Source: Desulfosudaceae bacterium
Lineage (GTDB): Bacteria; Desulfobacterota; Desulfobacteria; Desulfobacterales; Desulfosudaceae
Assembly: GCA_963674745.2 (NCBI GenBank)
Contig: CAXXDV010000001.1
Span: 1,536,001-1,600,000 of the forward strand
Direction of reading: 5' to 3'
Length of the DNA stretch: 64,000 bases
The notes beneath the pieces were generated by a model, which did no database searches, had not been told where the DNA came from, and saw only the letters and a list, made by a program, of their open reading frames with translations. Both the position numbers and the translations under genes were made by a program. Positions 2,665 to 64,000 of this stretch are shown piece by piece. How positions within the stretch are numbered: the stretch's first letter is position 1; each line of letters begins with the position of its first letter.

Positions 2665-4158
2665 ATGCCACAGGAAACGAAGATTCTGACAGATGAAGAG
2701 CGGGACTTTTTTTCGCTCATAAAAGACGCGACGCTGACCAACCCGTTCAGTGCCAGGCGGGACGAGCTTGACCGGGAAATTTCCGGTACAGCTCCCGCCG
2801 GCGGGCCTTCGCGGTATCTTGAAAAGGCGGTTGTCGCGGTGAAAGAACGGATCGGGGCTCTGGATAAAACCGGCCGCGGCAACATCAGTCTGTTTTCAGG
2901 AAAAGACAGGCAACTGGTCGAAAGACTGTTTGCCTTTGATTTTTTTTACAGCTTCAGAAAGCAGTTTGATCAGCTGATTCTGGATCAGATCGATGCCGGC
3001 GACAGGGTTATTAAATTGCCTTTCGCCAATGCCGCTAAAGCCACACTCCAGAAAAGAGGGTTTGACGAAGAAAGTATCAAAGGCATCATTGAAGAATCCT
3101 ATCAGTTCAGGCGGGCTTTCTTTTTCATTAACCGGAATCTGGTCGGCAAAAGCGCTGTAATGCAGAGACTCAGGGGGGATATATGGAACAATATTTTTAC
3201 CCACAATTTTGAATTATACAAAACGTATCTGCGGGATCGCATGGAGGACTTTTCCACCATCATTCTGGGGGAAACGGGTGCGGGTAAAGGGGCTGTGGCC
3301 GCCGCCATCGGTAATTCAGGCTACATACCGTTTGATATGCGGAAAAACCGTTTTACCGAAAGCTTTACCCGTTTTTTCATATCCATTAATCTGTCCCAGT
3401 TTCCCGAGTCTATTATCGAGTCCGAACTGTTCGGTCATAAAAAGGGGGCATTTACCGGCGCCATTGACGATTACAGCGGTATTTTTTCACAGTGCGGTCT
3501 TCATGGCTCTATTCTTCTTGATGAAATAGGTGAGATGTCATTGCCCATGCAGATAAAATTGTTGCAGGTCCTTCAGGAAAGAATCTATTACCCGGTCGGC
3601 AGCCGCAAAAAAGAACGGTTTTACGGAAGGGTCATTGCCGCCACCAACGGTTCCATTGATAAGCTCCGTCATGAGGGTGTTTTCAGAGACGACTTCTATT
3701 ATCGGTTATGTTCGGACGTGATTTACGTGCCGTCGCTGCGGGAGCGCCTGGAGCAGGACGCTGACGAACTCGATAATCTTATCACGGTTATTGTGAAGCG
3801 AACGGTGGGCCGAAACGCGCCTGAATTTGTCAAAATGGTTCAGGACGTGATCAACCATCAGCTGGGCCGGCATTACACCTGGCCCGGTAATGTCCGTGAG
3901 CTTGAGCAGTGCGTCCGCCGGGTCCTGCTGAAAAAAGATTACACCGGCGACAACAAGTTTTTATGTAACGACCTTAAAGCCGAACTGTCAGAAGGCCTGG
4001 AGAGCGGCACGATTCCTGCCAACCGGCTTATCGTGGGTTACTGTAAGCTTCTTTATGAACGATTCGGAACCTATGAAGAGGTGGCCAAAAGAACAAAGCT
4101 TGATCGACGGACGGTGACCAAGTATATTAAGGAATGGGACACGGAAAAGGATGATTGA
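2665..4158 (+). CDS. sigma54-dependent enhancer-binding transcriptional activator with an unrecognised N-terminal domain
   Basis: GETGAGK Walker A, ESELFGHKKGAFTGA, LLDEIGE, KLLQVLQE, FRDDFYYRL, WPGNVREL, C-terminal HTH. No receiver domain is recognisable. Confidence 0.92.
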   Translation: MPQETKILTDEERDFFSLIKDATLTNPFSARRDELDREISGTAPAGGPSRYLEKAVVAVKERIGALDKTGRGNISLFSGKDRQLVERLFAFDFFYSFRKQFDQLILDQIDAGDRVIKLPFANAAKATLQKRGFDEESIKGIIEESYQFRRAFFFINRNLVGKSAVMQRLRGDIWNNIFTHNFELYKTYLRDRMEDFSTIILGETGAGKGAVAAAIGNSGYIPFDMRKNRFTESFTRFFISINLSQFPESIIESELFGHKKGAFTGAIDDYSGIFSQCGLHGSILLDEIGEMSLPMQIKLLQVLQERIYYPVGSRKKERFYGRVIAATNGSIDKLRHEGVFRDDFYYRLCSDVIYVPSLRERLEQDADELDNLITVIVKRTVGRNAPEFVKMVQDVINHQLGRHYTWPGNVRELEQCVRRVLLKKDYTGDNKFLCNDLKAELSEGLESGTIPANRLIVGYCKLLYERFGTYEEVAKRTKLDRRTVTKYIKEWDTEKDD

Positions 4159-4279
4159 ACCGGAACCCCGAAAAAATGATGGTCCTTGTTGCCAATATTG
4201 CCAATAATAAGGCATTGTGTTATATTAAGAAATAAGACTGCCTGTCATAACAGCTTCATCATGATCAAAGAGGTATCCT

Positions 4280-5146
4280 ATGAGCGGATGGGAGGCCAGA
4301 AAGCTTCAACTGCCCAACCACAATTTCGAGACGGTCGCCATCAAATTCGATGACGGCCGAGCGGGCTTATGCTATCACGGCAGTGCGATCTGGAATGATC
4401 AGGGCGGCGGATGGGAAAGCTTTATTGCCGACGACTGGAACACGGTCTGGAAAGATGGCAAGTCCTGCCAGTTCAAAGATCTTCCACCGGATATGCGTAT
4501 CGCCTGTCCGGTCTGTGGCGCAAAGATCCATCCTGATGACATGGAATGCGGCCAGTGCGGCATTATTTTCGACAAGATGAAGGATGCGCCTGAAGAGCCC
4601 GAACAAAAGGAAGATCATACGGAAGAAAAAAAGGAGACGCGCCGTTCCAAGGCTGTGGATTTCAGTTTGGCCGGCGTGGTTTTGATCATTGCCGGTGTTC
4701 TTCTTTACAACGTGTTTAAACCCGATCCGCCTCAGTCCGCCCCGGCACGGCCGACAACGGCACAGGAACAGGCGGCCGGCAGCGATCAGGGGCAGCCGTC
4801 AGGTTCGGACGCGTATGATTACTCCCAGGCGGAACAGGATTATTCCGCAGATTATGACGAGTCTTCCGATACCGGGGGAGAAGACCTGGAACCAATCACG
4901 GTTGAAGAGATAGACTATTACAGTCACATTGATCTCGACAACACGGAAACCGCCCACCAGCAGTTGATGGAGGCAACGCAGGAACTCAACCAGGAGGCCC
5001 AACAGGTAAGAGCGGCCCTTGTGGCGGCCGGCACGCCTGAAGAAAAGCGTCAGGCAGCGCTGGACAAAATTCGATATGAGCAGAAATCAGTACAGTTGAG
5101 CCAGATGATAAAAGCGTTTAACGCCATGAACGCCGACGAGCAGTAG
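4280..5146 (+). CDS. hypothetical membrane-anchored zinc-ribbon protein
   Basis: GAGG RBS; CPVC-x10-CGQC zinc ribbon, one TM helix, acidic low-complexity linker, helical C-terminus. Confidence 0.7.
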   Translation: MSGWEARKLQLPNHNFETVAIKFDDGRAGLCYHGSAIWNDQGGGWESFIADDWNTVWKDGKSCQFKDLPPDMRIACPVCGAKIHPDDMECGQCGIIFDKMKDAPEEPEQKEDHTEEKKETRRSKAVDFSLAGVVLIIAGVLLYNVFKPDPPQSAPARPTTAQEQAAGSDQGQPSGSDAYDYSQAEQDYSADYDESSDTGGEDLEPITVEEIDYYSHIDLDNTETAHQQLMEATQELNQEAQQVRAALVAAGTPEEKRQAALDKIRYEQKSVQLSQMIKAFNAMNADEQ

Positions 5147-5161
5147 GTCTTTTCCGACCGG

Positions 5162-7636
5162 CTACATGCCTTTTTTGAAAAACTGTTCATCCTTTATGAC
5201 CGCTCCCGGTTTGGGCGTATGTTCGGTGGGAACGGTACCTTCCTTGAAGCATTCAAAAAAGGTTTCCCTGGACTCGGCAATGGGCAACAGTCCGGTTTCA
5301 GCATCAATCTTGGAAAAAACCACCCCCTCCGGCACACTGAACGACTGGACCGGTTTGTTCTCCAGGATGCCCTGCATGAAGGCCAGCCAGATCGGGCTGG
5401 CGGCACTGGCCCCCGTTTCCGAGGCGCCCAGGGTTTTTTCTTTATCAAAGCCGACCCAGACGGCCGTTACGTAATCCGGCGTGTATCCCACAAACCAGGC
5501 GTCATTGAGGTTGTCGGTCGTGCCGGTTTTGCCTGCCACAGGCCTTTTAAGCGCCCGAACGCGCCGGCCGGTACCCTGCTCAACCACGCCCTGAAGAAGG
5601 TGGGTCATAATAAAGGCCGTATCTTTTTCAATTACGGGTACCGGATCCGGTGTGTTCTGTTCCAGAATCTGTCCCTCACGGTCGACTATTTTTGTTATAA
5701 AAACAGGCGTTACACGTTCACCCAGATTGGCGAACACGGAATAGGCGGTAATCAGTTCTATGGGCGACATGCCGGAAGAGCCAAGAGCGATGGACAGGTT
5801 GCGGCTCAACGGGGACGTGATGCCCAGTTTTTCGGCATAGGAAATCACATAATCCACGCCGATGTCCCGGAGAATTTTAATGGTCGGGATGTTGTGTGAC
5901 TTGATCAAGGCCTTGCGAAATAAGGTGGGGCCGAAAAATCGTTCCTCATAGTTGTGTGGTTTCCATGTGAAATCATGCGCCTTGTCTTCAAAGACAATGG
6001 CCGAGTCCACAATCATGCTGGCCGGTGTATAACCTTTGTCCAGAGCTGCGGCATAAATAATGGGTTTAAAGGCCGAACCCGGCTGACGTCTGGCTTGAAT
6101 GGCACGGTTGAACTGGCTTTTTGAATAATCCCGGCCGCCTACCATGGCTTGAACCAGCCCTGTTTTCACTTCCATGCAGACAAGGGCCGATTCCACGTCC
6201 GGTGTCTGTTCCAGGGAAATATCATATTCAATGACACTTTCTTCGACGAAAGGGGCCGTTTGGGCCGGTTCCTGGTCGTTGGGTTCGGCTTCACCGGGTT
6301 CCCCGCTGAGGGCTTCCGCTTCTATCGGCGCAATAACGTCTTCCGGGGGCGGCAGTATCCCGTTTATTTTGACCAGAATGACATTTCCCACAGCCAGTGC
6401 CTGTGAAGGCTTTGTAATCCGGGCATAGGGCCGGTACCAGGCCACTTCAGGGTTCGGTTTTCGTGCCCAGGTCATATCTGAAAGCGGTATGCGGCCGCGC
6501 CCCCCGGCAAATCGGACCAGAACAGTTTCTTCGGCATCGTTGACATCGACCACTACGCCTTTAACGATACTGTCGGTTACCGTTTCCGGTCCGCTTGAAA
6601 TTTCCTGGTCATCTAAAGCGGTCAGTCGGGCCAGGTAAGGTTCGATTTCCTGTATATTCAGATGCTCAAGGGGCCCCCGGTAGCCCTGGCGTTTGTCCAG
6701 TGCCCGCAAGCCTTCGTCTATTTTTTCCCGGGCGATTTCCTGCTTTTCGACATTTACCGCCGTGTATATCTTCAGCCCCTGGTTATAAAGCATATCCTGG
6801 CCGTATCGCTCCATGACATACTGCCGGGCATACTCTGAATACCATGGCGTTGTTTCCCGAAACCAGCTTTTGACCGGTTTAATGTCCAGCTGTGTGTTCC
6901 GTGCCGCTTCAGCTTCCCACTGCGTAACGTGCCCTCTGTCAACCATTTGATCTAAAACATATAACTGTCTCTTTCGGGCCCTGGCCGGGAAGCGGAAGGG
7001 GGAGTAGCGGCTGGGCGCCTGGGGCAATCCCGCCATCAGGGCGCATTCCGCCAGGTTCAGCCGGTCGACGGTTTTTCCGAAGTAATTCTGGGCCGCCGCC
7101 TGGACCCCGTATGCGCCGTGCCCCAGATATATCTGGTTAAGATACAGAAACAGGATATCTTCTTTTGAAAACCGCCGTTCAATGCGGTAGGAGAGAATCG
7201 CTTCCCTGATTTTTCGGGTATACGTCCTTTCCGAAGAAAGAAAGAACGATTTGGCCACCTGCTGGGTAATGGTGCTGCCGCCCTGAACGATTTCTCCAGC
7301 CGTCATGTTTTTGACAAAGGCGCGGACAACGCTGATGATATCGATTCCCGTGTGTTGAAAAAAACGGGCATCTTCGGCGTCGACAAAGGCGTAAATCAAC
7401 TGTTCGGGAATTTCCGGCAAAGGCAGAACGATTCGGCGGTACTTGTAAAATTCGGCTATTTTTTCTCCGTTGTCAGAAAAAACCGTGGTGATCACCGGCG
7501 GATGGTAGTCCCGGAGAGAAGAAATTTCAGGCAGGTCTTTGCTGATTTGATAATAAAAGGTACCGGCGGCGATCATCGCCAGGACAATGAGGATGGCCAG
7601 CAGTAAGCCCGACCATTTCACGAATTTTAAAAACAT
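5162..7636 (-). CDS. mrcA: penicillin-binding protein 1A (bifunctional transglycosylase/transpeptidase)
   Basis: N-terminal TM; EDARFFQH, GGSTITQQ and RKIRE transglycosylase motifs; SAFK, SHN and KTG transpeptidase motifs. Confidence 0.95.
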   Translation of the reverse strand: MFLKFVKWSGLLLAILIVLAMIAAGTFYYQISKDLPEISSLRDYHPPVITTVFSDNGEKIAEFYKYRRIVLPLPEIPEQLIYAFVDAEDARFFQHTGIDIISVVRAFVKNMTAGEIVQGGSTITQQVAKSFFLSSERTYTRKIREAILSYRIERRFSKEDILFLYLNQIYLGHGAYGVQAAAQNYFGKTVDRLNLAECALMAGLPQAPSRYSPFRFPARARKRQLYVLDQMVDRGHVTQWEAEAARNTQLDIKPVKSWFRETTPWYSEYARQYVMERYGQDMLYNQGLKIYTAVNVEKQEIAREKIDEGLRALDKRQGYRGPLEHLNIQEIEPYLARLTALDDQEISSGPETVTDSIVKGVVVDVNDAEETVLVRFAGGRGRIPLSDMTWARKPNPEVAWYRPYARITKPSQALAVGNVILVKINGILPPPEDVIAPIEAEALSGEPGEAEPNDQEPAQTAPFVEESVIEYDISLEQTPDVESALVCMEVKTGLVQAMVGGRDYSKSQFNRAIQARRQPGSAFKPIIYAAALDKGYTPASMIVDSAIVFEDKAHDFTWKPHNYEERFFGPTLFRKALIKSHNIPTIKILRDIGVDYVISYAEKLGITSPLSRNLSIALGSSGMSPIELITAYSVFANLGERVTPVFITKIVDREGQILEQNTPDPVPVIEKDTAFIMTHLLQGVVEQGTGRRVRALKRPVAGKTGTTDNLNDAWFVGYTPDYVTAVWVGFDKEKTLGASETGASAASPIWLAFMQGILENKPVQSFSVPEGVVFSKIDAETGLLPIAESRETFFECFKEGTVPTEHTPKPGAVIKDEQFFKKGM

Positions 7637-7672
7637 ATAAACTCCAAATGCTTGCCGTGCTGCAGGGGCAAA

Positions 7673-8083
7673 TCATCCGTCTTGGTTATGGTTGATCCTT
7701 TTATCCCGTCGCTTCTGCTCCAGGCACTCACGGAAGGACTTTTTGATAAATCGAGAAGGGAATTGCGGATGTGCCAGATAATCCCGGGTAGAAACCTGGA
7801 AATTCTCCAGCATCTGGTTAAAAAGAGTTTCTTTTTCCTGCTCATCAATAAAAAGCCGTTCTCTCTTCTGTTCAAAAGTGATTTGTCCGCCCAGGACCTG
7901 TTTGACGGATAACAGATCACCGGTTTTTTCATCTTCCAGAGCGTCGTCATCCGCTACCGGCACGAGAGCGCAGACCTTCAGTGTCACCACCCAGCGGTCT
8001 CCGATCTGCTTTCTGGAGGCGTCATAAAGGCGCAACGTTACACCGTTTTCAAGTGTTTCTTCTGTAATCAGGGTTTGTTCCAT
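7673..8083 (-). CDS. hypothetical protein
   Basis: 136-aa ORF with protein-like composition, co-oriented directly upstream of PBP1A. Confidence 0.7.
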   Translation of the reverse strand: MEQTLITEETLENGVTLRLYDASRKQIGDRWVVTLKVCALVPVADDDALEDEKTGDLLSVKQVLGGQITFEQKRERLFIDEQEKETLFNQMLENFQVSTRDYLAHPQFPSRFIKKSFRECLEQKRRDKRINHNQDG

Positions 8084-8220
8084 TTTTTATCCGGATGAGT
8101 ATAAACGTAAAACGTATTCAAATCAAAACATTTATTATTTGATGACCCGGTATAAGAAAGCCAGGTTTCTTCCGGACATTTTTAAATAACGAAAAATACC
8201 TCTATCGGTTACCAAATCAA

Positions 8221-8393
8221 AGGCCGGCATTTTTTTTTGTGCGGCATTGATCGTTTCCGGGGAAAAATTCAGCCAGCGGCTTCGCGTATAGAAATGCTCG
8301 CTGTTTGAGGGCGAAAGCCCGAGTTCGAGGATTTTAGCGAAGGCGCTGGCTGAATCCCGGAATCGATCAGGCGCTCAAAAAAAATGCCGGCCT
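8221..8393. repeat. long imperfect hairpin element, copy 1 (homologue at 41749-41924)
   Basis: Terminal arms AGGCCGGCATTTTTTT / AAAAAAATGCCGGCCT; nested stem TTCAGCCAGCG/CGCTGGCTGAA; core 8296-8329 matches the reverse complement of 41815-41848 at 31/34 nt. Confidence 0.8.
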
Positions 8394-11300
8394 AAAACAA
8401 TTCCATTTGAACCGGCCCCTTACGGGACGTTTTCCCTTTTCCCAGGTCGGCGGATGCCAGAAGTCGGGTTTCGATGTCTTCGACAAAAGGGGAAATTCGG
8501 CGCTGCTCTGTTTTGCCATAAATGCGCCGCCGTTTGGCGTGGGTAAAAAACAGCTGCTCCCGGGCCCGTGTCATGGCCACGTAAAGCAGGCGGCGCTCTT
8601 CATCGATATCAACGGTATTTTTTTGCGAACGCTTTAAAGGCAGATAGCCATCCTCACAGCCGGCCACAAAAACGATGGGGAATTCCAGCCCCTTGGCGGC
8701 ATGGATGGTCATCAGCCGCACTCTGTCGGCCCGGGGAAGATGGGCGTCTGCATCTGATGCCAGAGAAATGCCGGCCAGAAACGAAACCGGCGCCAGCCCG
8801 CTTTCTCGCGCGGATTGGATCAGCAGGTCGCAGGTTTCCCGGGTTTTCTGCTTGCTGTCGATGACCGATTGAATGTCTGACCGTGTGTCAAGTATATACC
8901 GCAACTGCTCGTCCGTTTTCATTTGCTGTGCCTTATCCCGCATTTCCAGAAGCCTTTCGGCCAGCGTGGCCAGCCGGGCCTGAACCGCGTTGCCGACGCC
9001 GTCGGCAGGAAAACGAATCAATGATGACAGCATTTTATTGATGGTTAATCCATGCTTTATGTTCCAGGCTTCCAGCGCTTCAACGGTACGGGTTGACTGA
9101 CGTATTCCGCCGCCGGACAGGACCCGTTTAAAATCCATCATACTGCCGCAGTCGTTAAGCAGACGCAGCAGGGAAATCAGTTCCGCGATACCGGCCGCTG
9201 CAAACATTTTTTCCCGGCTGACCAGGTGACAGGGGATGCCGGCGGCGCCCAGGACATCGGCGAACACGGTTGCCTGGGTGCGTGTCCGGAAAAGAACGGC
9301 CATGTCGGAAAAAGCATAAGCCTTTTCCGGATCTTCATACCCGGCTTTGCCGAAATCCACGGAAAAGAACCCCAGTCCACCCACAAGGGACTCAATGGTT
9401 TTTCCCACAAACGTGGCTTCCGCTTTGTCGGAGGCCAGTCCGGCCACGGTTATGGCCGGCTGACCGGAAATGCCCGAGTAAACCCTTACCCGCTGAGCAT
9501 TTTCCGGTTGACGGCTGATGACATTGTAAGAGGCCGACAGAATCGTTTCCGTGGACCGGTAATTTTTATCCAGGCAAATGGCGGCGGCACCCGGATAGTC
9601 CCGTTTAAAATTATTGAAAAAAGCCGTGTCCGAACCACGGAAGCCGTAGATCGCCTGATCCGGATCGCCGATAACGCAGATGTTGCCGTCGGGCGGTGCC
9701 AGTGCCCGGATCAGCCGGTACTGGCCGTAGTTGATGTCCTGGTATTCATCAATAAATACAAATGGATACTGCTGGTGACAATCGCGCTGGAAAACCTCGT
9801 CCGTTTCAAGACGGTCAACGACACGTTCGATCAGATCTTCATAATCCAACAGTCCATAGCTTTTCAATAAATCCTGGTAGGCCTGGTAGACGGCTGCCAG
9901 GACCGATGGCGGCATGTCGCCGGTAATTTTTTCCAGGTCATCTGCCGGACCCAGCAGCAGCTGTTTGGCCCGGCAAATCATCTCGGCAAAGCGGGCCGGC
10001 TGTTTCTCTGCGGCCGGGTCGGCAAGATCCGCCCGTCGGACGGCGTCGGATATGATTTGCCGCTGGTCTGTCTCATCGATAATCACCGGCACGGTTTCGG
10101 TGAACGTTTTCAGGAGGCTGAAACAGAACGCATGAAAAGTGGACACCCGCGGGCAGGTGCCGGTCAAGCCCGTCATCTCCAACAGGCGCTGAGACATTTC
10201 GTCTGCGGCCCGGTTGGTAAAGGTGATGGCCAGGATGTTGTCGGGGTCGATTTTTTTTTTCGTGATCAGGCGGGCAATGCGGCAGGTAAGGGTATGTGTT
10301 TTACCCGAGCCCGGTCCGGCAATAATGATAAGCGGTCCGGTTCCGTAATTGACGGCTTGACGTTGCCGGCCGTTCAGTTTACTGAAGAGCTCTTGCGGTT
10401 GGACGGTTGTCGGGGGGCCGTCCGGAATACCCGGTAATGACGGCTGGCTGGCCGGCTTCGGCGGCGGCATCACCGCCGTTTTTGCGCAGGTGTCACCACC
10501 GGCTGTTTCAGCAGGGGGGTCGGAAAACAGGCTGATGTCACCTTTGAGACGGTCGATTTCTCGGGGTTTAAACACCTTGACCCGGCCGTATTCTCCATCA
10601 AATCCGGGTGTCAGCTGGATGTTTCCCCTGCGGATCCGGTCAATGGCGATATCCAGCAGCAACTGGCCGCTTTTTTTGATGTCTTCGACGGGTGTATCGT
10701 AAAGCACCTCGAATTCCGGGCCGACTTTTTCCAGTACAGTGTTATAGGCCGCCGTCACTTTTTTGGATTTGGGGCCTACGCCCAGAATTTCCGACAACAC
10801 TTCTTCTAAAGGAACAAGGCTGTAAAAAGGATGATGCCGGTCCGGTTTTTCGTCCGGGCCGCGATCGGCCAGTTCTTCGACCCGGTACAATACGCCCAGG
10901 GTCAAGGGCTTGCCGCATACCGGGCAGTTGCCGTCATGCTGCCGGGTAATATCGGGTGAAAACGAAATGCCGCAGGCGCGGTGGCCGTCAAAATGATACT
11001 TGCCTTCCTCGGGAAAAAACTCATAAGTACCCAGGTATTGTTCGGGATCCCCGGTTTTCAGGGCCTGCCGCATGTCGGAATAAGAAAGCCCGGTGTTAAA
11101 GAGGCAGGCCTCACGGCCCAGCTTGGAAGGGGAATGGGCGTCGGAATTGGAGACCAGGGTCAGGCCGTCGATGTTCGATACCCGCCAGTTCATGGGCGGG
11201 TCGGACGACAGCCCGGTTTCCACGGCAAAGATATGCGGCGTAAGATCTTCAAAGCATTCTTTTATGTCGTCAAAACCGGATTTTGAGCCGAACAGCGAAA

Positions 11301-11808
11301 ACCAGGGCGTCCAGATGTGGGCGGGGATCAGGTATGCTTCCGGCGTTGTTTCCAGTGCGATTTCAAGCAGGTTTCGAGCGTCCAGCCCCAGGATCGGCCG
11401 CCCGTCCGATTTGATGTTGCCGATGGCATCCAGCCGGGCGTTAAAACGCGCCGCCGAATCCAGGTCCGGCATCAATACCAGGTTGTGATTTTTGCGGGTC
11501 CGATCGTTTTTTTTATATATATTGCTGATTTCCGTGGACAGTACGAACCGAACCGGCCGGCGGCAGGAAGGGGGCACCGCCTGATCACAGGCGGTCGCGA
11601 TCTCCGGATTTAATTTAAAAAAGCCTTCTTCAGCCGGCACCAGTTTTTCCCGCAGTTCGGCAAACCAGGCCGGATGGGTATAATCACCCGTGGCCACCAC
11701 GGTGATGCCCTTTAACTGGGAAAAAATATAGAGATGTTCCAGATCCAGGTTTTTGGCCGTAGCCCGGGAGTATTTGGAGTGGACGTGTAAGTCGGCAATA
11801 TATCGCAT
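8392..11808 (-). CDS. fusion of PHP-fold endonuclease Q-like domain and UvrD/PcrA SF1 helicase
   Basis: N-terminal ADLHVHSKYSRAT, GDYTHP, AHIWTPWFS, SNSDAHS, GKYHFDGHRAC...CPVC. C-terminal AGPGSGKT, DEYQD, GDPDQAIYGFRG, TIHAAKGLEF, EERRLLYVAMTRA. Confidence 0.9.
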   Translation of the reverse strand: MRYIADLHVHSKYSRATAKNLDLEHLYIFSQLKGITVVATGDYTHPAWFAELREKLVPAEEGFFKLNPEIATACDQAVPPSCRRPVRFVLSTEISNIYKKNDRTRKNHNLVLMPDLDSAARFNARLDAIGNIKSDGRPILGLDARNLLEIALETTPEAYLIPAHIWTPWFSLFGSKSGFDDIKECFEDLTPHIFAVETGLSSDPPMNWRVSNIDGLTLVSNSDAHSPSKLGREACLFNTGLSYSDMRQALKTGDPEQYLGTYEFFPEEGKYHFDGHRACGISFSPDITRQHDGNCPVCGKPLTLGVLYRVEELADRGPDEKPDRHHPFYSLVPLEEVLSEILGVGPKSKKVTAAYNTVLEKVGPEFEVLYDTPVEDIKKSGQLLLDIAIDRIRRGNIQLTPGFDGEYGRVKVFKPREIDRLKGDISLFSDPPAETAGGDTCAKTAVMPPPKPASQPSLPGIPDGPPTTVQPQELFSKLNGRQRQAVNYGTGPLIIIAGPGSGKTHTLTCRIARLITKKKIDPDNILAITFTNRAADEMSQRLLEMTGLTGTCPRVSTFHAFCFSLLKTFTETVPVIIDETDQRQIISDAVRRADLADPAAEKQPARFAEMICRAKQLLLGPADDLEKITGDMPPSVLAAVYQAYQDLLKSYGLLDYEDLIERVVDRLETDEVFQRDCHQQYPFVFIDEYQDINYGQYRLIRALAPPDGNICVIGDPDQAIYGFRGSDTAFFNNFKRDYPGAAAICLDKNYRSTETILSASYNVISRQPENAQRVRVYSGISGQPAITVAGLASDKAEATFVGKTIESLVGGLGFFSVDFGKAGYEDPEKAYAFSDMAVLFRTRTQATVFADVLGAAGIPCHLVSREKMFAAAGIAELISLLRLLNDCGSMMDFKRVLSGGGIRQSTRTVEALEAWNIKHGLTINKMLSSLIRFPADGVGNAVQARLATLAERLLEMRDKAQQMKTDEQLRYILDTRSDIQSVIDSKQKTRETCDLLIQSARESGLAPVSFLAGISLASDADAHLPRADRVRLMTIHAAKGLEFPIVFVAGCEDGYLPLKRSQKNTVDIDEERRLLYVAMTRAREQLFFTHAKRRRIYGKTEQRRISPFVEDIETRLLASADLGKGKTSRKGPVQMELF

Positions 11809-11811
11809 TTT

Positions 11812-12057
11812 TTAAGGGTGTTCTCGAATCTTTACTTTTTCTTTTGTCTCTGTAATCAGCAAACTCATGATCTCGAGGGGAACATCTGTTCCAAATGTTT
11901 CAACAAAATACTGACCGTTGGCGTTCCAGAAAAAGACGCTGGCGACCCGTTGGCTCCGGCCGTTTGATTCTTCATACAGCTCAAAACCACTGTACTCGTC
12001 TTTTTTGTCATCAATAAATTTTGACGTGTATCGAAGATTTCCCCAACTAAGATCCAT
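11812..12057 (-). CDS. small hypothetical protein (AT-richer than its neighbours)
   Basis: GGAG RBS; 81-aa ORF filling the gap between ogt and the helicase fusion. Confidence 0.65.
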   Translation of the reverse strand: MDLSWGNLRYTSKFIDDKKDEYSGFELYEESNGRSQRVASVFFWNANGQYFVETFGTDVPLEIMSLLITETKEKVKIREHP

Positions 12058-53346: not shown

Positions 53347-54680
53347 GGTTCTTCTCCCAATTAGTGGGAGGAAAAGGCCTGTATGACCTTTAATGTAAAG
53401 TATCTATCGTCATGAAATCCATAGGATTTTCGTTTTATGACCTTAATTTTATTATTAACACCTTCTATTTTACTGGTATGAATCGGATAATCGCAATGGT
53501 TCAGGATGCCGTAAGCGTGCCTTTCAAGCATGTCGGCAAATTTCTGTACGGGCCTGTGGCTCACCGTTCTGGCCAGGGCACACCATTCATCCAATCTCTT
53601 TTTGGCCCAGCCCCTTTTTTGATAGTCCCATATTCGCTTCAGACAATCTTTCAAAATCATGACCGTAGATATGGTTTCATTAATTTCAAGAAGCTGCCGC
53701 AAATGCTGCCGGGCCTCACTGCTATGAATATTCTGGGGATTGGACAGCAGCAAATACTTGGTTCCTTTGTATATCGCCTGGTCCGGCTTCGTCGCTTTTC
53801 TAAACTCTTCTATTCGAACTTTGTCGATCACCTTATTAAATGCGTGAACCACATGAAAAAGATCAAACACGATCTTTACATGAGGCACATTCTCTCGAAC
53901 CGTTTTAATGTAAGGATCCCACATATCCATGGCGATGGCTTCCAGCGCCTGTTTCTGTTCCTGGCTCATGCCGGCGAAAAAGACTTGAAGCGTCTCCACG
54001 GATCGGCCCCTGCCAAGCCATACCACCCGACCGGTTTGATAGTCCAAAACAACAGTCATATACGTATGGCCTTTATGGATGGCGATTTCATCAACCGCCA
54101 GTATGCTCAAGTCGCTGTAGTCCGTCCTTCCAAACGATTCTTCCAAAAAGTTTTTATCAATATTTTTGACCGTCTTCCAGTTGAGCTCCAAATGCGCGGC
54201 CACTTCAGAGACCGTCAAAATCTTACACAACTCATGGATATAAAGGGCCAGTCTTTTGGTAACCCGCTGGTACGGATTGAAAAAGTCCAGGTCTTCAACC
54301 CGAATACCCTGGCAACGGGGGCAATAAATTTTACGATATCTGCAGTTGATCCATACATTTGCGGCCCCAAGGTTCAAATCCCGCAACGGACGTCTGGCCT
54401 GGTCATGAACGCCTTGAGCCGGGCTGCCGCAACTATAACAAATAGGGCGATAGCGCTCGTCTGGCTCGGCAATTATCATCGCCATATCTCCGGCGTCAGA
54501 AACCGTTTGTTTTGTAAAACGGACTCGACAAAAAGGGAGATAGGGCTTTATACTCATAGCGGACATCATCGGTCTCCTTTCTTCCAGAATTGTCTCTCAA
54601 CTTTCTGGATAGAAGAAAGAACTGATGATGTCCATTTTTTATTAGCAGCTTAACTCCTCCCACTAATTGGGAGAAGAACC
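53347..54680 (-). mobile_element. complete ISL3-family insertion sequence (1334 bp)
   Basis: Perfect 26-bp TIRs GGTTCTTCTCCCAATTAGTGGGAGGA; 8-bp TSD AAACTTTA at 53339-53346 and 54681-54688. Confidence 0.95.
53361..54569 (-). CDS. ISL3 family transposase
   Basis: CYSC...CPRC zinc finger, AVDE, MDMW.PY, FDLFHV, EGVNNKIKVIKRKSYGF. Confidence 0.95.
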   Translation of the reverse strand: MMSAMSIKPYLPFCRVRFTKQTVSDAGDMAMIIAEPDERYRPICYSCGSPAQGVHDQARRPLRDLNLGAANVWINCRYRKIYCPRCQGIRVEDLDFFNPYQRVTKRLALYIHELCKILTVSEVAAHLELNWKTVKNIDKNFLEESFGRTDYSDLSILAVDEIAIHKGHTYMTVVLDYQTGRVVWLGRGRSVETLQVFFAGMSQEQKQALEAIAMDMWDPYIKTVRENVPHVKIVFDLFHVVHAFNKVIDKVRIEEFRKATKPDQAIYKGTKYLLLSNPQNIHSSEARQHLRQLLEINETISTVMILKDCLKRIWDYQKRGWAKKRLDEWCALARTVSHRPVQKFADMLERHAYGILNHCDYPIHTSKIEGVNNKIKVIKRKSYGFHDDRYFTLKVIQAFSSH

Positions 54681-59091: not shown

Positions 59092-60045
59092 TCAATGCTG
59101 ATGACTTTCGCAGGTGCTGTCGCCCGGTTCACATCCTGTTTTGCGGCAGAGCAGTTCGCCCCGGCCGCAGGCGGAGGTCTCAAACTGCAGTACCGGATGA
59201 TCAATGCCGAAGTTATCCATCAATATATCATTTATCGTCATCGTCAGGCTTTCGGTGGCACTGATCAACTGGTCGGGTACCACGACATGTGCGGTCAAGG
59301 CTACAGAGCGGTTTCCCATGCTCCAGGCGTGAAGGTAGTGAACGCTGTCGACGCCGTCTATGGATTCCAGGGCGGTTTTGACGGCCTCGAGATCCAGCCC
59401 CCGGGGCACGCCGTTCATCAGCACATGGACCGCTTCTTTTACCAGCACCACGCTGTTCCATACGATATACACCACAATGGCCAGGCTCAGGGCCGGATCC
59501 AGCCACGGCAGGTCGGCCACCTGCATGACCAGCGCGCCGACCAGAACCGCTACCGATGTCAGCATGTCGCCGATCATGTGGAGAAAAGCGCCCCTGGCGT
59601 TGAGGTTGTGTTCAGAGTCGCGGTGCAGCAGCCAGGCGGCGGCCCCGTTGCCCGCGATACCCAGAAGCGCCAGCCAGAATACGATGGTCAGGTTGATGGG
59701 CCGGGGATCGGCCAGTCGGGCCAGCGCTTCAGCCGCTATATACATGGCGGCACCGCACAAAAGCGCGGCATTGACGAGGGCGGCCAGAATTTCGATACGC
59801 TGCAGACCGAAGGTGTGCTGCACAGACGGGCCCCGTTTTGCGGCCCGGTGGGCGCCGTAGGCCACCACCAGGGCGGCAAAGTCTCCCAGGTTATGGACCG
59901 CGTCCGAAATCAGGGCCACACTTCCGGCTAAGAGGCCGCCGATGATTTGAGCCGCCGGAATCAGCAGATTGATCACCATGGCCAGCATCAGCCGTCTGCC
60001 GAGGGTCTCGGTAAGTGAGTGGTTATGTGAGTGGTGCGGGTTCAT
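59092..60045 (-). CDS. cation diffusion facilitator (CzcD/ZitB-like) divalent-metal exporter
   Basis: His-rich N-terminus, SDAVHNLGD, FG..R.E, NLNARGAFLHMIGD, LHAW, H..LQFE; Cys/His-rich tail. Confidence 0.92.
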   Translation of the reverse strand: MNPHHSHNHSLTETLGRRLMLAMVINLLIPAAQIIGGLLAGSVALISDAVHNLGDFAALVVAYGAHRAAKRGPSVQHTFGLQRIEILAALVNAALLCGAAMYIAAEALARLADPRPINLTIVFWLALLGIAGNGAAAWLLHRDSEHNLNARGAFLHMIGDMLTSVAVLVGALVMQVADLPWLDPALSLAIVVYIVWNSVVLVKEAVHVLMNGVPRGLDLEAVKTALESIDGVDSVHYLHAWSMGNRSVALTAHVVVPDQLISATESLTMTINDILMDNFGIDHPVLQFETSACGRGELLCRKTGCEPGDSTCESHQH

Positions 60046-60054
60046 TTCCTGTAT

Positions 60055-60963
60055 TTAAAAAGTTAAAGAAATCCCCCCCTGAACAATGTGCTGGTCATAA
60101 TCATAAATATCTACATTTGAGTGGGTATGGACAAACGTGTAGCGGGCCATAAAACCCAACATGTCATTGATTTGAAAGCCGTATTCAATGCCCATGCTGG
60201 TTAAATTGTCCTCGCGCCGGTCAGAGGAGGTTCCGTTAAGATAATCCCAGGCCCGGGCATCATAATCAATCTGCTGGTAATCGCCGAGAATCCGGAAGAT
60301 GTTCCGGTCTTTAAGGCTGATAAGGTAAGACATGCCGCCGCCAAGGGCGCGTCCGTCTTCATCAAATGTCGGGTATTCGTCCACATCCTCGATCTGGGAT
60401 ATTGTTGCGTAAAAATCAACGGCCTGATTTATTTCGGGAAAACTTATCGTGACCGTGGGCGATGCCGTATAACGATGATAACTGGATTCATTGTCTTCTC
60501 TGGAATAAATGTATTTCAGCGGCAGGCTGAAGATGACGTTTCCCCGGTACCACTGCGGTTCTATGGACAACAGCTGGTCGAGTACATCATTTTCTTTGAA
60601 CTCCTCGTGAAGATCCGCATAAACATTGTAGTCGGCCCGGAGTCCGAAACCGTCGCTGAATTTGTGCTGCCAGTAAGTCGACAGGCTGATAAATCCGGCA
60701 TAATCATCCGGGTCGTCATCGGTGTAGGCAGCGTCCAGGTTCTCGACAATGTGTGAATCGTATTTGGCGCCAATGAGAACGGAAGCACCGAAATTACGGG
60801 TTTTTTCCGTCTGGTTTTTTATTCTGTCCTGAATTTTGGCTCCCCCGACCTGGGAGAGGCTCTGCGACGTGGCACTGCAGCCTCACCCCGCCGCCCAGGC
60901 CATGGTTGTGTTCATCATGTATAAAACGATAAATACGGTCAGGATACCAACTTGTTTCTTCAT
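60055..60963 (-). CDS. outer-membrane beta-barrel protein with an in-frame TGA at codon 27 (candidate selenoprotein; alternative: nonsense pseudogene)
   Basis: Manual translation: MKKQVGILTVFIVLYMMNTTMAWAAG-TGA(60883-60885)-GCSATSQ..., open in the same frame into the track ORF 60055-60570; ends HSNVDIYDYDQHIVQGGISLTF (terminal Phe). Confidence 0.75.
60840..60858 (-). promoter_or_regulatory. candidate SECIS hairpin
   Basis: mRNA CUCUCCC-AGGUC-GGGGGAG, +25 to +43 nt after the UGA. Confidence 0.5.
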
Positions 60964-61160
60964 AATAATGACCTTTTTTGTTTGTAAAATAATTTGATCG
61001 ATTGGTTATAGGCAATTAAAACGCTTTTATCATATTCTTTCTGGAGTGGACCGGTTTACTACCTGGCGCCCGACCCGTTGGCGTGGTCCGGGAAATGCCG
61101 GGTGTGTGTCAGGCAGGATCTCTCATACAAAGAAAAGGGGCAGAGAAGATATCTTTTTTA

Positions 61161-61454
61161 TCAAAACTGGCCAAGCGGCCTGGTGAACGTAAACCGGGCC
61201 GGTTCGACAACCAGTGTACTGGCGATCTGGCCGACGTTGTCACCCATTGCTGAAAACGGCAGCGAGACGATAAACAATGTTGAGCCGATAATCGTAGCCG
61301 CAAAACCAAGGGGGCGACACAGCAGGAAATCACCCGCTACTGATGCGTCCGATACGCGGCTGGAAGACATCTCCATGGCCGGCGCGGTAATCGGCGCCGT
61401 CAGCAGTGCCGCAACCAAAAGCAGAGTGGTAAATCGACGCATCAATTTCATCAT
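61161..61454 (-). CDS. small exported/membrane hypothetical protein
   Basis: GGAGG RBS, signal peptide, D.LLCRPLG...SLPF...LVVEPARFTFTRPLG. Confidence 0.8.
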   Translation of the reverse strand: MMKLMRRFTTLLLVAALLTAPITAPAMEMSSSRVSDASVAGDFLLCRPLGFAATIIGSTLFIVSLPFSAMGDNVGQIASTLVVEPARFTFTRPLGQF

Positions 61455-61887
61455 TTTTTTTGCCTCCAGAAAAGCATTAACCGAAAGTTTTCGGATTGTT
61501 GTTTTATTAACTATAATTATGCAAAAACCGTCTGTCAACTGTAATTGGTTTTCTGAATAATCGCTTAGGCCCATTTTAAATCATATTAAAATTATTAAAA
61601 AACAGATTCTTTTAACTTTTAAAAAGGGGCGGATAAGGATTGAAAAAACCTATTCCTATGGTAGGATATGAAATCATTGTTTTTGATGCCGCGGCATCCG
61701 TTTTTCTTATTGGAAAAACACCTGAATTGACATTTAATGAAAAGAGAATATATTGGTTAACAACATTTGCTCACCATATTTTCTGCAGATTATGCGTTAA
61801 TGAAAAAAATGATTTGTTTTCAGAATGCTTGACTCACATAAGCAGCCATTAATTTAGGATCATCAACAGATTGTCAAGGAGGGGGAC

Positions 61888-64000
61888 ATGAAACGTATAA
61901 ATGCAGTTCTATTAATTGTTTTATGGGTGGTCTTTCTTTCACCCGGTCTTACCGCAGCCGGAACAGGTGAAGAAGATATTATCCCGACTGTTAAATCAAG
62001 CACCCCGGTTAACCCGGATTTATTTAAGAGCGTGGTGCCCGACTACGCTCGAGCCGTCGGTGATGTGTTGACGGTTTCAATCGATTCCAGCGGGTTCCCG
62101 GTCATTCTGTTGACGGTCACGCTTCAGAGTTCAACCGGAGACCCCATCAGCAATTTGATGATCGATGACTTTCAGGTGTCCGAACAGTCTGACCAGGAAA
62201 GCGCACCGACCGTTGAAGCCATTGATTCAGTAAATGAAACCGTTGAAAGCAGCGGCGCTTCACTGGGCTTGTTGTTCGACCTCAGCGGCAGCATGCTGTT
62301 AAATGGACGTGTCGACATGGCCAGGCAGGATGCCTTGTGCTTGTTAGATCTAATGGGATCAAATGATCGTGTCATGCTGATGTCGTTTTCCGGACCTGGT
62401 TCAGCGATGGAAATTCTGCCCCCCGGCCCGTTTACCCGGGATGCGGATGGAAACGGCCGGTATGACATTATCGAAGCGGTGAACAGCCTGTCGACGACAA
62501 AAGGCTTCAGCACAGCTGTTTACGATGCCGTGGGCATGGCAATCAGCGCCATGCAGGCGGAATCTCAGCCAAAGGGCATCGTGCTGTTCTCTGACGGCCT
62601 GTCAAACAACGATAATGTCTATGACATTAATGCTGCCATTCAAATGGCAACAAACGCCGGTATTCCTGTTGCGACACTGATTTATGGGAATGAAAACCAG
62701 CAGATTGACGGCCTTGCCGCCGGAACCGGCGGGGTGGCGTTTAATGACCCGGCCTGTCAGGACATGGACGGACTCTACAATTCATATACAACCGCTACAA
62801 CCAGCACCTATACCATCACCTATACCTCCCATAATCCTGAAGAAGACGGAACCAATCGTACGGTGAACGTGACTTATGACGGCGCTACGGGTACGGCGAC
62901 TTATGCGGTCTCCGGAACAACGCCGGTTGAGCCGGGCCAGTGCACCGAAAATTGTGGTGGTGGAACGGGCTGTTTTGTGCAAACCATGGGCGGTAATACG
63001 CTTTCCAGTCTTCGGGTTTTTTCGTATGTTTTGTTCTCGGCGCTGGTGGCGGGGCTGATTCTCTTTTTGCTCAGGCGATTTTCCGCCAGGCAGAACATCA
63101 CTTTTCTGCTGGTGATTTTTGTCCTGGCCCTGTCGGGCATGGCAAACAATCCGGCACAGGCCGGTTTGCGCAAAGGCGCCTTTTCCATCAGTCCCATGGC
63201 CGGTATTTATTATTTTGATGATGACCAGGAAATCGAAAAAGACCCTGTGGCCGGTTTCGGTCTTGGTTATCAGTTTGCCGATAACTGGGGCGTCGAACTT
63301 ATGTTGAACCATGGCCGGTATGATTATCATTACCTGGTGGCCGCCCAGTGCCTTTGCGAGACGGATGATGTCAGCGCCGACCTGGGAAGAATTGACTTGT
63401 TATATCATCTGTGGCCGGAAAGCGACCTGGTGCCGTATCTGGCTGTCGGCTTCGGGGGCATAAGCCTTGATTTTGACAGTTTTGATAAAGAAGACGACAT
63501 TTTTGCCGATTACGGCGGCGGTCTTCTCTACTTTTTGTCCGAGGACATCGCCTTTCGGGCTGATGTGCGGGGAATACACACCTTTGACGATTCTTACAAC
63601 AATCTGGCCGCTACGGTCGGCGTTTCTTTTCTGTTGGGTGGAAAACACAAAGCCGGTGCGCCCTGCGAAACGGCGGCAAAGCCTGTTCCGCCCACAACCC
63701 CTGTTGGAAAAGGGGCAATTGCCCCGGCCCCGGTTATGGCCGCCAGACCGGCCGACTTTCATATCCTGTTCGATTTTAACAAAACGGCGGTTAATCCAAA
63801 ATACTATAATAATTTCAAATCGGTAGCAGATTACCTGAAGGCCTATAAGCAAATTGTGTTAAGGATTGAGGGGTATGCCGACGCCATCGGTTCAGAGGCC
63901 TATAACCAGGCGCTTTCTCTGCGTCGGGCACAAAGCGTCAGCGCTTATCTGTCCACCAACTTTAATGTATCACGGTCACGAATGTACGTTGTCGGATTAG
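61888..64000 (+). CDS. signal peptide-VWA domain-CTERM-like anchor-internal signal peptide-OmpA barrel and OmpA C-terminal domain; 3' end runs off the window
   Basis: AGGAGG RBS; no stop by manual translation to the window end. DLSGS MIDAS, TAVYDA and LFSDG (VWA); GGGTGCF + TM + RR; second hydrophobic segment ending AQA; PYLAVGFG/YGGG/FRADVR barrel; FDFNK..EGYAD.IG..AYNQALS.RRA. Confidence 0.9.
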   Translation, partial: MKRINAVLLIVLWVVFLSPGLTAAGTGEEDIIPTVKSSTPVNPDLFKSVVPDYARAVGDVLTVSIDSSGFPVILLTVTLQSSTGDPISNLMIDDFQVSEQSDQESAPTVEAIDSVNETVESSGASLGLLFDLSGSMLLNGRVDMARQDALCLLDLMGSNDRVMLMSFSGPGSAMEILPPGPFTRDADGNGRYDIIEAVNSLSTTKGFSTAVYDAVGMAISAMQAESQPKGIVLFSDGLSNNDNVYDINAAIQMATNAGIPVATLIYGNENQQIDGLAAGTGGVAFNDPACQDMDGLYNSYTTATTSTYTITYTSHNPEEDGTNRTVNVTYDGATGTATYAVSGTTPVEPGQCTENCGGGTGCFVQTMGGNTLSSLRVFSYVLFSALVAGLILFLLRRFSARQNITFLLVIFVLALSGMANNPAQAGLRKGAFSISPMAGIYYFDDDQEIEKDPVAGFGLGYQFADNWGVELMLNHGRYDYHYLVAAQCLCETDDVSADLGRIDLLYHLWPESDLVPYLAVGFGGISLDFDSFDKEDDIFADYGGGLLYFLSEDIAFRADVRGIHTFDDSYNNLAATVGVSFLLGGKHKAGAPCETAAKPVPPTTPVGKGAIAPAPVMAARPADFHILFDFNKTAVNPKYYNNFKSVADYLKAYKQIVLRIEGYADAIGSEAYNQALSLRRAQSVSAYLSTNFNVSRSRMYVVGL

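Follow-up and report, generated by a model that had tools for sequence, protein, structure and literature searches.

The stretch analysed here (the window) comprises 64,000 nucleotides (nt) of the genome of a Desulfosudaceae bacterium (contig CAXXDV010000001.1, positions 1,536,001 to 1,600,000), and on its minus strand, at 60055-60963, lies a frame of 302 codons plus TAA that contains one in-frame TGA. Judged from sequence comparison, and with a probability of roughly 0.88, this is a single intact gene for an exported outer-membrane beta-barrel protein with selenocysteine (Sec, U) at residue 27. A Shine-Dalgarno-like AAAGG (60972-60976) stands 8 nt 5' of the ATG (60963-60961), and codons 1-24 (60892-60963) encode a signal peptide of the general secretory type, MKKQVGILTVFIVLYMMNTTMAWA, which ends in A-W-A before an inferred signal peptidase I site. 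It is followed by A-G, the only in-frame TGA (codon 27, 60885-60883) and G-C-S, in which Cys29 (60877-60879) is the partner of Sec27 in a U-x-C motif. The frame stays open for 275 codons after the TGA, up to the TAA at 60057-60055, and the protein ends in ...GGISLTF. Downstream of the UGA is a hairpin resembling a selenocysteine insertion sequence (SECIS) at 60840-60858, composed of CUCUCCC (60858-60852), an AGGUC loop (60851-60847), and GGGGGAG (60846-60840); its stem begins 24 nt and its loop 31 nt past the UGA. A conserved short helix precedes the first strand (residues 44-52, the KIQDRIKNQ region, 60808-60834; predicted local distance difference test score (pLDDT) about 69 in an AlphaFold (AF2) model), and the barrel domain occupies residues 58-302 (60058-60792), with 12 modelled strands and the C-terminal Phe. 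All of the elements listed in the initial annotation, which was made from the letters alone, can be read off the sequence: the AAAGG, the start codon, the signal peptide and the A-G after it, the single TGA with G-C behind it, about 275 further codons with a terminal Phe, and the hairpin at its exact distance of 24 nt. Open reading frame (ORF) calling with genetic code table 11 fragments the locus, leaving as the longest in-frame piece 171 amino acids (aa) from a TTG at 60570. Scans for promoter and terminator consensus sequences gave no match on the strand of the gene.

We searched 401 genomes of the order, this one included, in six-frame translation and obtained matches at E<=0.001 in 23 of them; a single in-frame TGA was flagged in six matches, and in two more distant ones (L015 and L016) the TGA lies just upstream of the matched part. 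Scanning metagenome contigs with a closer alignment (A5) added 12 loci, eight with TGA and four with Cys. The TGA-bearing loci number 16 (this one, those of seven other genomes from four families of the one order, and eight on metagenome contigs), and in each of them the TGA is in frame at the aligned position, between a signal peptide and a barrel. Of the 16 motifs, 14 read U-G-C, one U-N-C, and one U-A-C. In seven homologues the Sec position is occupied by Cys, in the settings G-C-G-C (P0016), G-C-V-C (P0019), C-S-T-S-C (P0012), C-S-A/V-C (L043, L044, and L046), and C-A-S-C (L047); Trp, Arg, or Gly, which would have spoken against Sec, never occur there. Sec27 and Cys29 are invariant columns in alignment A4, whose members share 25-61% identity with the query. 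The presence of Cys at the Sec position in all seven homologues without TGA, together with the invariant partner Cys, points to selection on the chemistry of the residue, and we regard the TGA at 60883-60885 as very probably a selenocysteine codon.

Sec sits 0-2 residues past an A-x-A-type cleavage site in the 16 Sec-type loci. Position -1 is small and position -3 is small or aliphatic in all 16 of these and in the seven Cys-type homologues, as read from the sequences, and cleavage by signal peptidase I would yield the mature N-terminus A-G-U-G-C. We considered and rejected a lipoprotein in which Sec or Cys would be the +1 residue of a lipobox: L-W-A-U and W-A-G-C fit it, A-D-G-U and A-D-D-C do not, and an A-x-A-type site fits all.

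Database proteins are cut short in the way that the initial annotation expected of gene callers. A protein search returned seven relatives with 62-89% identity, all of which are shorter than the read-through product and start after the TGA position. When a profile was searched against 1.84 billion representatives, 22 matches ranked above the first long protein; 19 of them begin at profile position 39 or later and lack the N-terminus, and the full-length ones are the Cys-type P0012, P0016, and P0019. Proteome annotations of sulfate-reducing genomes of the Desulfobacterota type are thus wrong at this locus because gene callers truncate the protein. A related-locus search of genome contigs with the protein of this genome (P0001) found no relative.

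The fragments left by table-11 calling could also mean that the TGA is a true stop and the locus a pseudogene, two ORFs, or a sequencing error, and the hairpin of this gene is not significant by itself. TGA is otherwise an ordinary stop in the genome, terminating 582 of the 1661 open frames that have 400 codons or more. We consider a true stop extremely improbable, since the same TGA recurs at the same place in 16 deeply diverged loci with both parts of the frame intact and no other lesion. A barrel without a signal peptide could not get to the outer membrane, and the first in-frame start past the TGA is the TTG at 60570, use of which would cost about 40% of the barrel. A public assembly contig is identical over the stretch and carries the same TGA; it agrees with the base as read, and as it probably stems from the source data themselves, it is not an independent confirmation. 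Contigs from the other sequencing runs span just portions of the stretch.

The genome encodes the machinery for selenocysteine insertion. The canonical selB (C1:1156265-1158157) scores 369.8 bits against a cut-off of 242.25, selA (607.9 bits) and selD (368.6 bits, with an in-frame TGA of its own) exceed their curated cut-offs, and tRNA-Sec scores 75.1 bits (gathering score 47). The seven other genomes that bear a Sec-type barrel gene all have selA above cut-off. The sulfate-reducer background assumed in the initial annotation agrees with the presence of dsrA (621.5 bits). At least eight other genes for selenoproteins are present, with in-frame TGA in two FdhA genes, one FdhA-like gene, four FlpD/MvhD genes, and selD (C2:53681-55687, C3:2042139-2044148, C3:1453900-1454643, C1:2497352-2497720, C1:2462274-2462642, C1:2466123-2466491, C3:1865481-1865849, and C1:326061-326981). 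Seven of these eight TGA sites have a hairpin with a GG loop, the stems of which begin 10-16 nt past the UGA; the loops are GGUCU in the FdhA genes and GGA or GGC in the FlpD and SelD genes. The residue in homologues, the hairpin, and the Sec genes, points on which the Sec reading of the TGA could have failed, all came out in its favour. A second full-length SelB-like gene (C3:1795409-1797292, L002) scores 239.9 bits, just below the TIGR00475 cut-off of 242.25, and each of the two paralogues could act on SECIS elements of a different geometry. When the genome was scanned crudely for TGA with a GG-loop hairpin, 290 read-through ORFs came up.

Hairpins of the same type are found at all 16 TGA loci. 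They have a stem of 6-8 bp in which a pyrimidine strand pairs with a purine strand, and an apical loop of GGU, GGC, GGUC, AGGUC, or CGGUU. Across the family the stem starts 17-37 nt and the loop 23-44 nt past the UGA. In the published bacterial SECIS consensus the loop lies about 16-37 nt from the UGA, which places the L016 loop, at 44 nt, outside that range. Twelve different hairpin sequences occur, and two positions of the stem show exchanges between CG and UA; the conservation that the initial annotation proposed to check is borne out and includes some compensatory changes. The distance between UGA and hairpin varies as the intervening peptide changes length, and the retention of the hairpin despite this argues for a constraint on the RNA besides that on the protein. 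Among the Cys-type loci, the GG loop is absent in 4/4: a remnant of 6 bp closed by a UGCU loop is left in L043 and L044, and L046 and L047 have nothing comparable. As a background, 228 of 3200 mononucleotide shuffles and 13 of 198 other windows of 80 nt from the same eight genes contain a comparable GG-loop hairpin; the significance of the hairpin therefore lies in its presence in 16/16 TGA-bearing homologous loci and not in the hairpin of this gene alone. SelB and tRNA-Sec would decode UGA codon 27 as Sec, aided by the GG-loop hairpin downstream. The system shares with the fdhF-type selenoproteins of Escherichia coli, and with the FdhA, FlpD, and SelD genes of this genome, an in-frame UGA, a nearby hairpin in which GG opens the apical loop, Cys homologues, and a full set of sel genes. 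It differs in the distance to the stem (24 nt here, 17-37 nt in the family), in a stem made of a pyrimidine run and a purine run, and in the position of Sec, which lies in the disordered N-terminal tail of an exported protein and not in the active site of an enzyme. The mechanism of Sec insertion is ordinary. What is unusual is where the Sec is placed, at the N-terminal tip of an outer-membrane barrel, in an exposed position.

Several observations weigh against the selenoprotein reading, most of them concerning the hairpin. The 60-nt stretch of this gene is no more stable than its dinucleotide shuffles (z = +0.67; 149 of 200 fold at least as well). Covariation is modest, both with 8 sequences (87.5% of cells paired, a score reached by 13 of 500 shuffles) and with 16 sequences, 13 of them distinct (86.8% paired, reached by 11 of 500 shuffles). 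When the stem partner is slid by one column, 70-74% of cells are still paired because the stem is homopolymer-like (homopyrimidine/homopurine). The hairpin also overlaps a conserved S-x-x-G peptide, and protein constraint thus contributes to its conservation. The stem of this gene starts at 24 nt, compared with 10-16 nt in the known selenoprotein genes of the genome. No Rfam family reaches its gathering score in the window, and no Rfam SECIS family matches 60780-60920 even at E<=10. In the AF2 model the N-terminal tail is of low confidence (pLDDT 28-40 for residues 21-40). Lastly, the only RNA match is a single 151-nt contig from marine-sediment metatranscriptome run X18, which covers 60684-60834 with eight differences, belongs to the gene of a relative, and gives a weak hint that this relative's gene is transcribed.

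The protein bears all marks of an outer-membrane protein: a signal peptide, a modelled closed barrel that finds only barrels among its structural matches, and a C-terminal Phe. The AF2 model, which was built on an alignment of eight sequences, has a pLDDT of 73 and a pTM of 0.74 and consists of a disordered tail (residues 16-40), the helix at 44-52, 12 long strands, and one short hairpin. Its best match among solved folds is the COG4313 channel Pput2725 (PDB: 4rl8; Z 19.4, root-mean-square deviation 3.2 over 240 residues, model residues 37-302). This channel is alike in fold but has 9% sequence identity and lacks a Sec or Cys tip. Model residues 37-57, with the short helix, superpose on the N-terminal segment of 4rl8. 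The next structural matches are 12-stranded autotransporter barrels, in which the alignments begin at model residues 25-27 and take in the tail. Going by this low-confidence part of the model, the tail may lie in the barrel lumen as the N-terminal segments of those matched proteins do, and the short helix is a possible plug or hinge. A search of PDB sequences with profile A4 gave no match at E<=1.

The location of Sec in a disordered tail, outside the folded barrel of the AF2 model, also fits the idea that the UGA serves chiefly as a selenium-dependent translational gate, by which the channel is made only when selenium is at hand and the chemistry of Sec is of minor importance. We find this very unlikely, because the neighbouring Cys is invariant in 16/16 Sec loci and Cys fills the Sec position in every one of the seven homologues without TGA.

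The barrel can be placed by its more distant relatives. Pfam gave only sub-threshold barrel matches for the protein (DUF481, OMP_b-brl, and BBP2_2), of which DUF481 (PF04338) scores 19.0 bits (E 0.0015) below a gathering score of 21.1; several of the truncated homologues carry a precomputed PF04338 label. PF13557 has no match in the protein at E<=1. None of the NCBIfam families matches it at E<=1, including NF041027, NF049945, NF049953, NF041197, and NF049942, and among the Cys homologues P0012 and P0019 match none and P0016 has just a weak match to a PEP-CTERM outer-membrane protein family (E<=0.001). Beyond the family itself, the profile search runs into hundreds of proteins of about 500 aa with an N-terminal TPR domain followed by a barrel (profile E 1.9e-35 and weaker; 1508 matches at E<=0.001). 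Four of five such proteins scanned pass the cut-off of 22 bits for SlipAM/DUF560 (PF04575): P0030 (27.9), P0033 (32.1), P0042 (22.9), and P0061 (34.8). The Cys homologue P0012 stays below it with 21.2 bits, and the protein itself has no PF04575 match at E<=1. It also has no TPR match, and about 30 residues separate its signal peptide from the first strand. The likeness to Slam/DUF560-type barrels suggested by the initial annotation thus holds for the TPR-plus-barrel relatives and fails for the protein when it is scanned directly. Its profile matches make the protein a relative of Slam/DUF560-like barrels that has no TPR domain, and its barrel would derive from such a TPR-plus-barrel family. 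What it shares with that family is a barrel homologous to that of the ~500-aa proteins of the same phylum; it differs in having a 30-residue Sec-Cys tail in place of the TPR domain, 12 modelled strands, and no adjoining gene for a substrate lipoprotein. The Slam barrel is 14-stranded. Only in the basal members L015 and L016 is there an additional insert, of about 32 residues, which leaves room for two more strands. In a phylum-wide sample of 401 genomes (this one included; threshold E<=1e-15), 27 matched; besides this genome, the 26 matches are stop-free frames of ~420-640 aa, that is, TPR-plus-barrel relatives. This sample held no further Sec-type member, and outside the order it held only long forms.

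A tree with four TPR-plus-barrel proteins as outgroup places the 22 family members included (the very short row L044 was left out) in one clade with a support of 100/99. The Sec-type L015 and L016 are basal, and the Cys forms make up two clades nested in the Sec forms, one of P0016 and P0019 and the other of P0012, L047, L043, and L046. With the root set by the outgroup only, Sec looks ancestral and looks to have been replaced by Cys at least twice. The family offers a natural series of Sec-to-Cys replacements, with two independent events, for asking what selenium gives at an exposed site.

The barrel gene is followed on the same strand by a gene for a ZitB-like cation efflux protein of the cation diffusion facilitator (CDF) family (59092-60045). 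The two probably form one operon, since the CDF ATG lies 9 nt past the barrel-gene stop and the spacer contains AGGAA. In the genome of a congener (G129) the orthologue is 61% identical and stands in the gene order ArsE-type thioredoxin, DGC protein, ACR3, ArsF, ArsG, barrel protein, rhodanese, CDF::MauE fusion, and TauE, with all named ars models above their cut-offs. The rhodanese gene is 50 nt downstream of the barrel gene, and the CDF protein, encoded two genes downstream of the orthologue, shares 51% identity with the CDF protein of the window. In the genome analysed here, ArsG is encoded elsewhere, away from the barrel gene. Within the congener's island (L051, G129:C7:43700-60700, about 3850-11850) the rhodanese is membrane-anchored, the domain fused to the CDF protein is MauE/DoxX-like, and after another 3.4 kb comes a gene for an ABC binding protein of the molybdate/tungstate type.

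We infer that the barrel is of the channel type and that the nucleophilic selenol/thiol pair on its N-terminal tail either binds a thiophilic ligand or reacts with one. The pair would sit at the very tip of a flexible tail of ~30 residues, which is followed by the short helix and the 12-stranded barrel, and the tail would serve a small channel as its tethered plug or 'fishing line'. The Sec-x-Cys tip would chelate a thiophilic ligand or cycle through a selenylsulfide, and in this genome its likely cargo would be a soft metal or metalloid that the probably co-transcribed CDF exporter pumps to the periplasm. For this genus we favour handling of soft metals or metalloids tentatively, at somewhat less than even odds. 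The metal- or redox-binding tip of the initial annotation stands as a proposal drawn from gene context, and that context is mixed across the family.

Much of the family speaks against a metal role. A gene for an iron-containing alcohol dehydrogenase (Fe-ADH) is head-to-head with the barrel gene in eight loci (L039, L040, L042, L045, L049, L052, L053, and L054), and beyond it, as far as the contigs reach, are genes for SCP2, a tungsten-type aldehyde:ferredoxin oxidoreductase (AOR), and TetR; the commonest context of the family is thus this divergent Fe-ADH/SCP2/AOR/TetR catabolic cluster and not metal genes. Four further loci (L055, L056, L057, and L048) show no contextual theme. The other flank of the Fe-ADH-type loci holds genes for thiolase, SCP2, and acyl-CoA dehydrogenase, and the cluster looks like one for the anaerobic breakdown of a hydrophobic alcohol or lipid. 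The flanks of L052, L053, L054, L039, L042, and L045 encode large SCP2-fused enzymes (an MFE-2-like hydratase/dehydrogenase and a thiolase-like DUF35/SDR fusion) and an SCPx-type thiolase.

The channel might accordingly take up hydrophobic alcohols, aldehydes, or lipids, with a Sec-x-Cys selenylsulfide as a latch that holds or gates the N-terminal plug. Besides the head-to-head Fe-ADH genes and the thiolase/SCP2 beta-oxidation genes opposite them, this is supported by the spread of the Fe-ADH-type loci over three deep clades, including L040, the sister of the genus studied here, and by the best solved fold, the COG4313 channel. That family is reportedly implicated in the uptake of hydrophobic molecules, and its N-terminal segment is said to occlude the lumen. 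The case for a latch is that, in a periplasm that is sulfidic and reducing, a selenylsulfide would last where an ordinary disulfide would not; this redox argument is general chemistry, however, and a purely structural latch has no obvious need of selenium. Moreover, the barrel gene in these loci is on the opposite strand and is not a member of the catabolic operon, whereas in the window and in the congener it stands in operons with efflux pumps. We therefore rate uptake of hydrophobic molecules as unlikely for the protein.

Rhodanese genes point in a third direction. Apart from the one 50 nt downstream of the orthologue in the congener, a gene for a fusion of CoA-disulfide reductase and rhodanese is directly upstream of the barrel gene in three loci of the Cys clade (L043, L044, and L047); it overlaps the barrel gene in L047, a locus that also encodes a TehA-type transporter and another rhodanese. 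The protein could then relay sulfane sulfur or selenium (polysulfide, S0, or selenotrisulfide), the selenolate attacking S-S or S-Se bonds and handing the chalcogen to periplasmic partners of the rhodanese type. The host, with its dsrA, would suit such a role, and according to the discussion of a recent preprint it is not known how polysulfide crosses the outer membrane (bioRxiv 10.1101/2025.11.18.688581). We hold a relay to be quite improbable nonetheless, as there is no rhodanese gene beside the barrel gene in the window, rhodanese neighbours occur in two clades only, the CoA-disulfide-reductase-rhodanese fusion is probably cytoplasmic, and no sulfur-respiration genes adjoin. Beside the Cys-type barrel gene of L043, at L043:7739-8763, a peroxiredoxin (AhpC/TSA) frame lies in three ORF pieces, which could be another TGA-containing gene or a broken one.

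Known selenoproteins offer few counterparts. Table 1 of a May 2026 review (PMC13188914) holds 119 selenoprotein families, and current catalogues count 111-119 prokaryotic families, nearly all of them soluble redox enzymes. Among the searchable entries of the review, the sole outer-membrane ones are a GSU2204/MtrB-PioB-type barrel (NF041027) and the FCYXU TonB-dependent receptor (NF049945). As described there, both are outer-membrane barrels that carry Sec, and they differ from the protein reported here in barrel family, size, motif, and position of Sec. The same entries give U-x-C for a thioredoxin-like family and for the Cu/Zn efflux transporter of the SO_0444 family (NF033936). The latter, as entered, shares with our protein the U-x-C motif in a metal-efflux setting; it is an efflux transporter, not an outer-membrane barrel, and has no sequence relation to it. 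The main texts on BSepDB (PMC13326102) and deep-Sep (PMC12013277) do not contain 'outer membrane', 'barrel', or 'porin', and the Haft 2022 preprint mentions the outer membrane in passing only. A full-text literature search, outside of which lay Haft & Tolstoy 2025 and the supplementary tables (deep-Sep, PMC8318568), found no paper on such a protein. The family is absent from the searchable selenoprotein catalogues and could be listed in Haft & Tolstoy 2025 or in those supplementary tables.

The family described here is an exported and non-enzymatic-looking selenoprotein that is cut short systematically by gene callers. A wider proposal, which we put forward as possible though doubtful, is that an N-terminal selenol-thiol pair works as a chalcogen 'hook' on a tether, catching thiophilic cargo and either gating it or feeding it through a barrel, and that several unrelated barrel families of anaerobes acquired such hooks independently. 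The cargo could be As(III), Zn/Cd, W/Mo species, or sulfane sulfur. If the tip binds metals, metalloids, or sulfur species, the protein is a concrete candidate for the crossing or sensing of such cargo at the outer membrane in anaerobes of sulfidic habitats.

The remaining neighbours in the window touch the barrel gene less closely. An ORF of 137 aa upstream of it (61161-61574) matches no family in Pfam or NCBIfam and has no counterpart beside the homologues. On the other side, 4.5 kb downstream of the CDF gene and past a TrkH/TrkA pair and a Kef-type exchanger, is a gene for an ISL3-family transposase (53361-54569, minus strand), which may account for the difference between this locus and the island of the congener. 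Finally, a plus-strand gene that begins at 61888 and runs off the window (61888-63999) encodes an exported protein of more than 704 aa, whose N-terminal half has no assignment and precedes an OMP_b-brl/OprF-type barrel and an OmpA domain.

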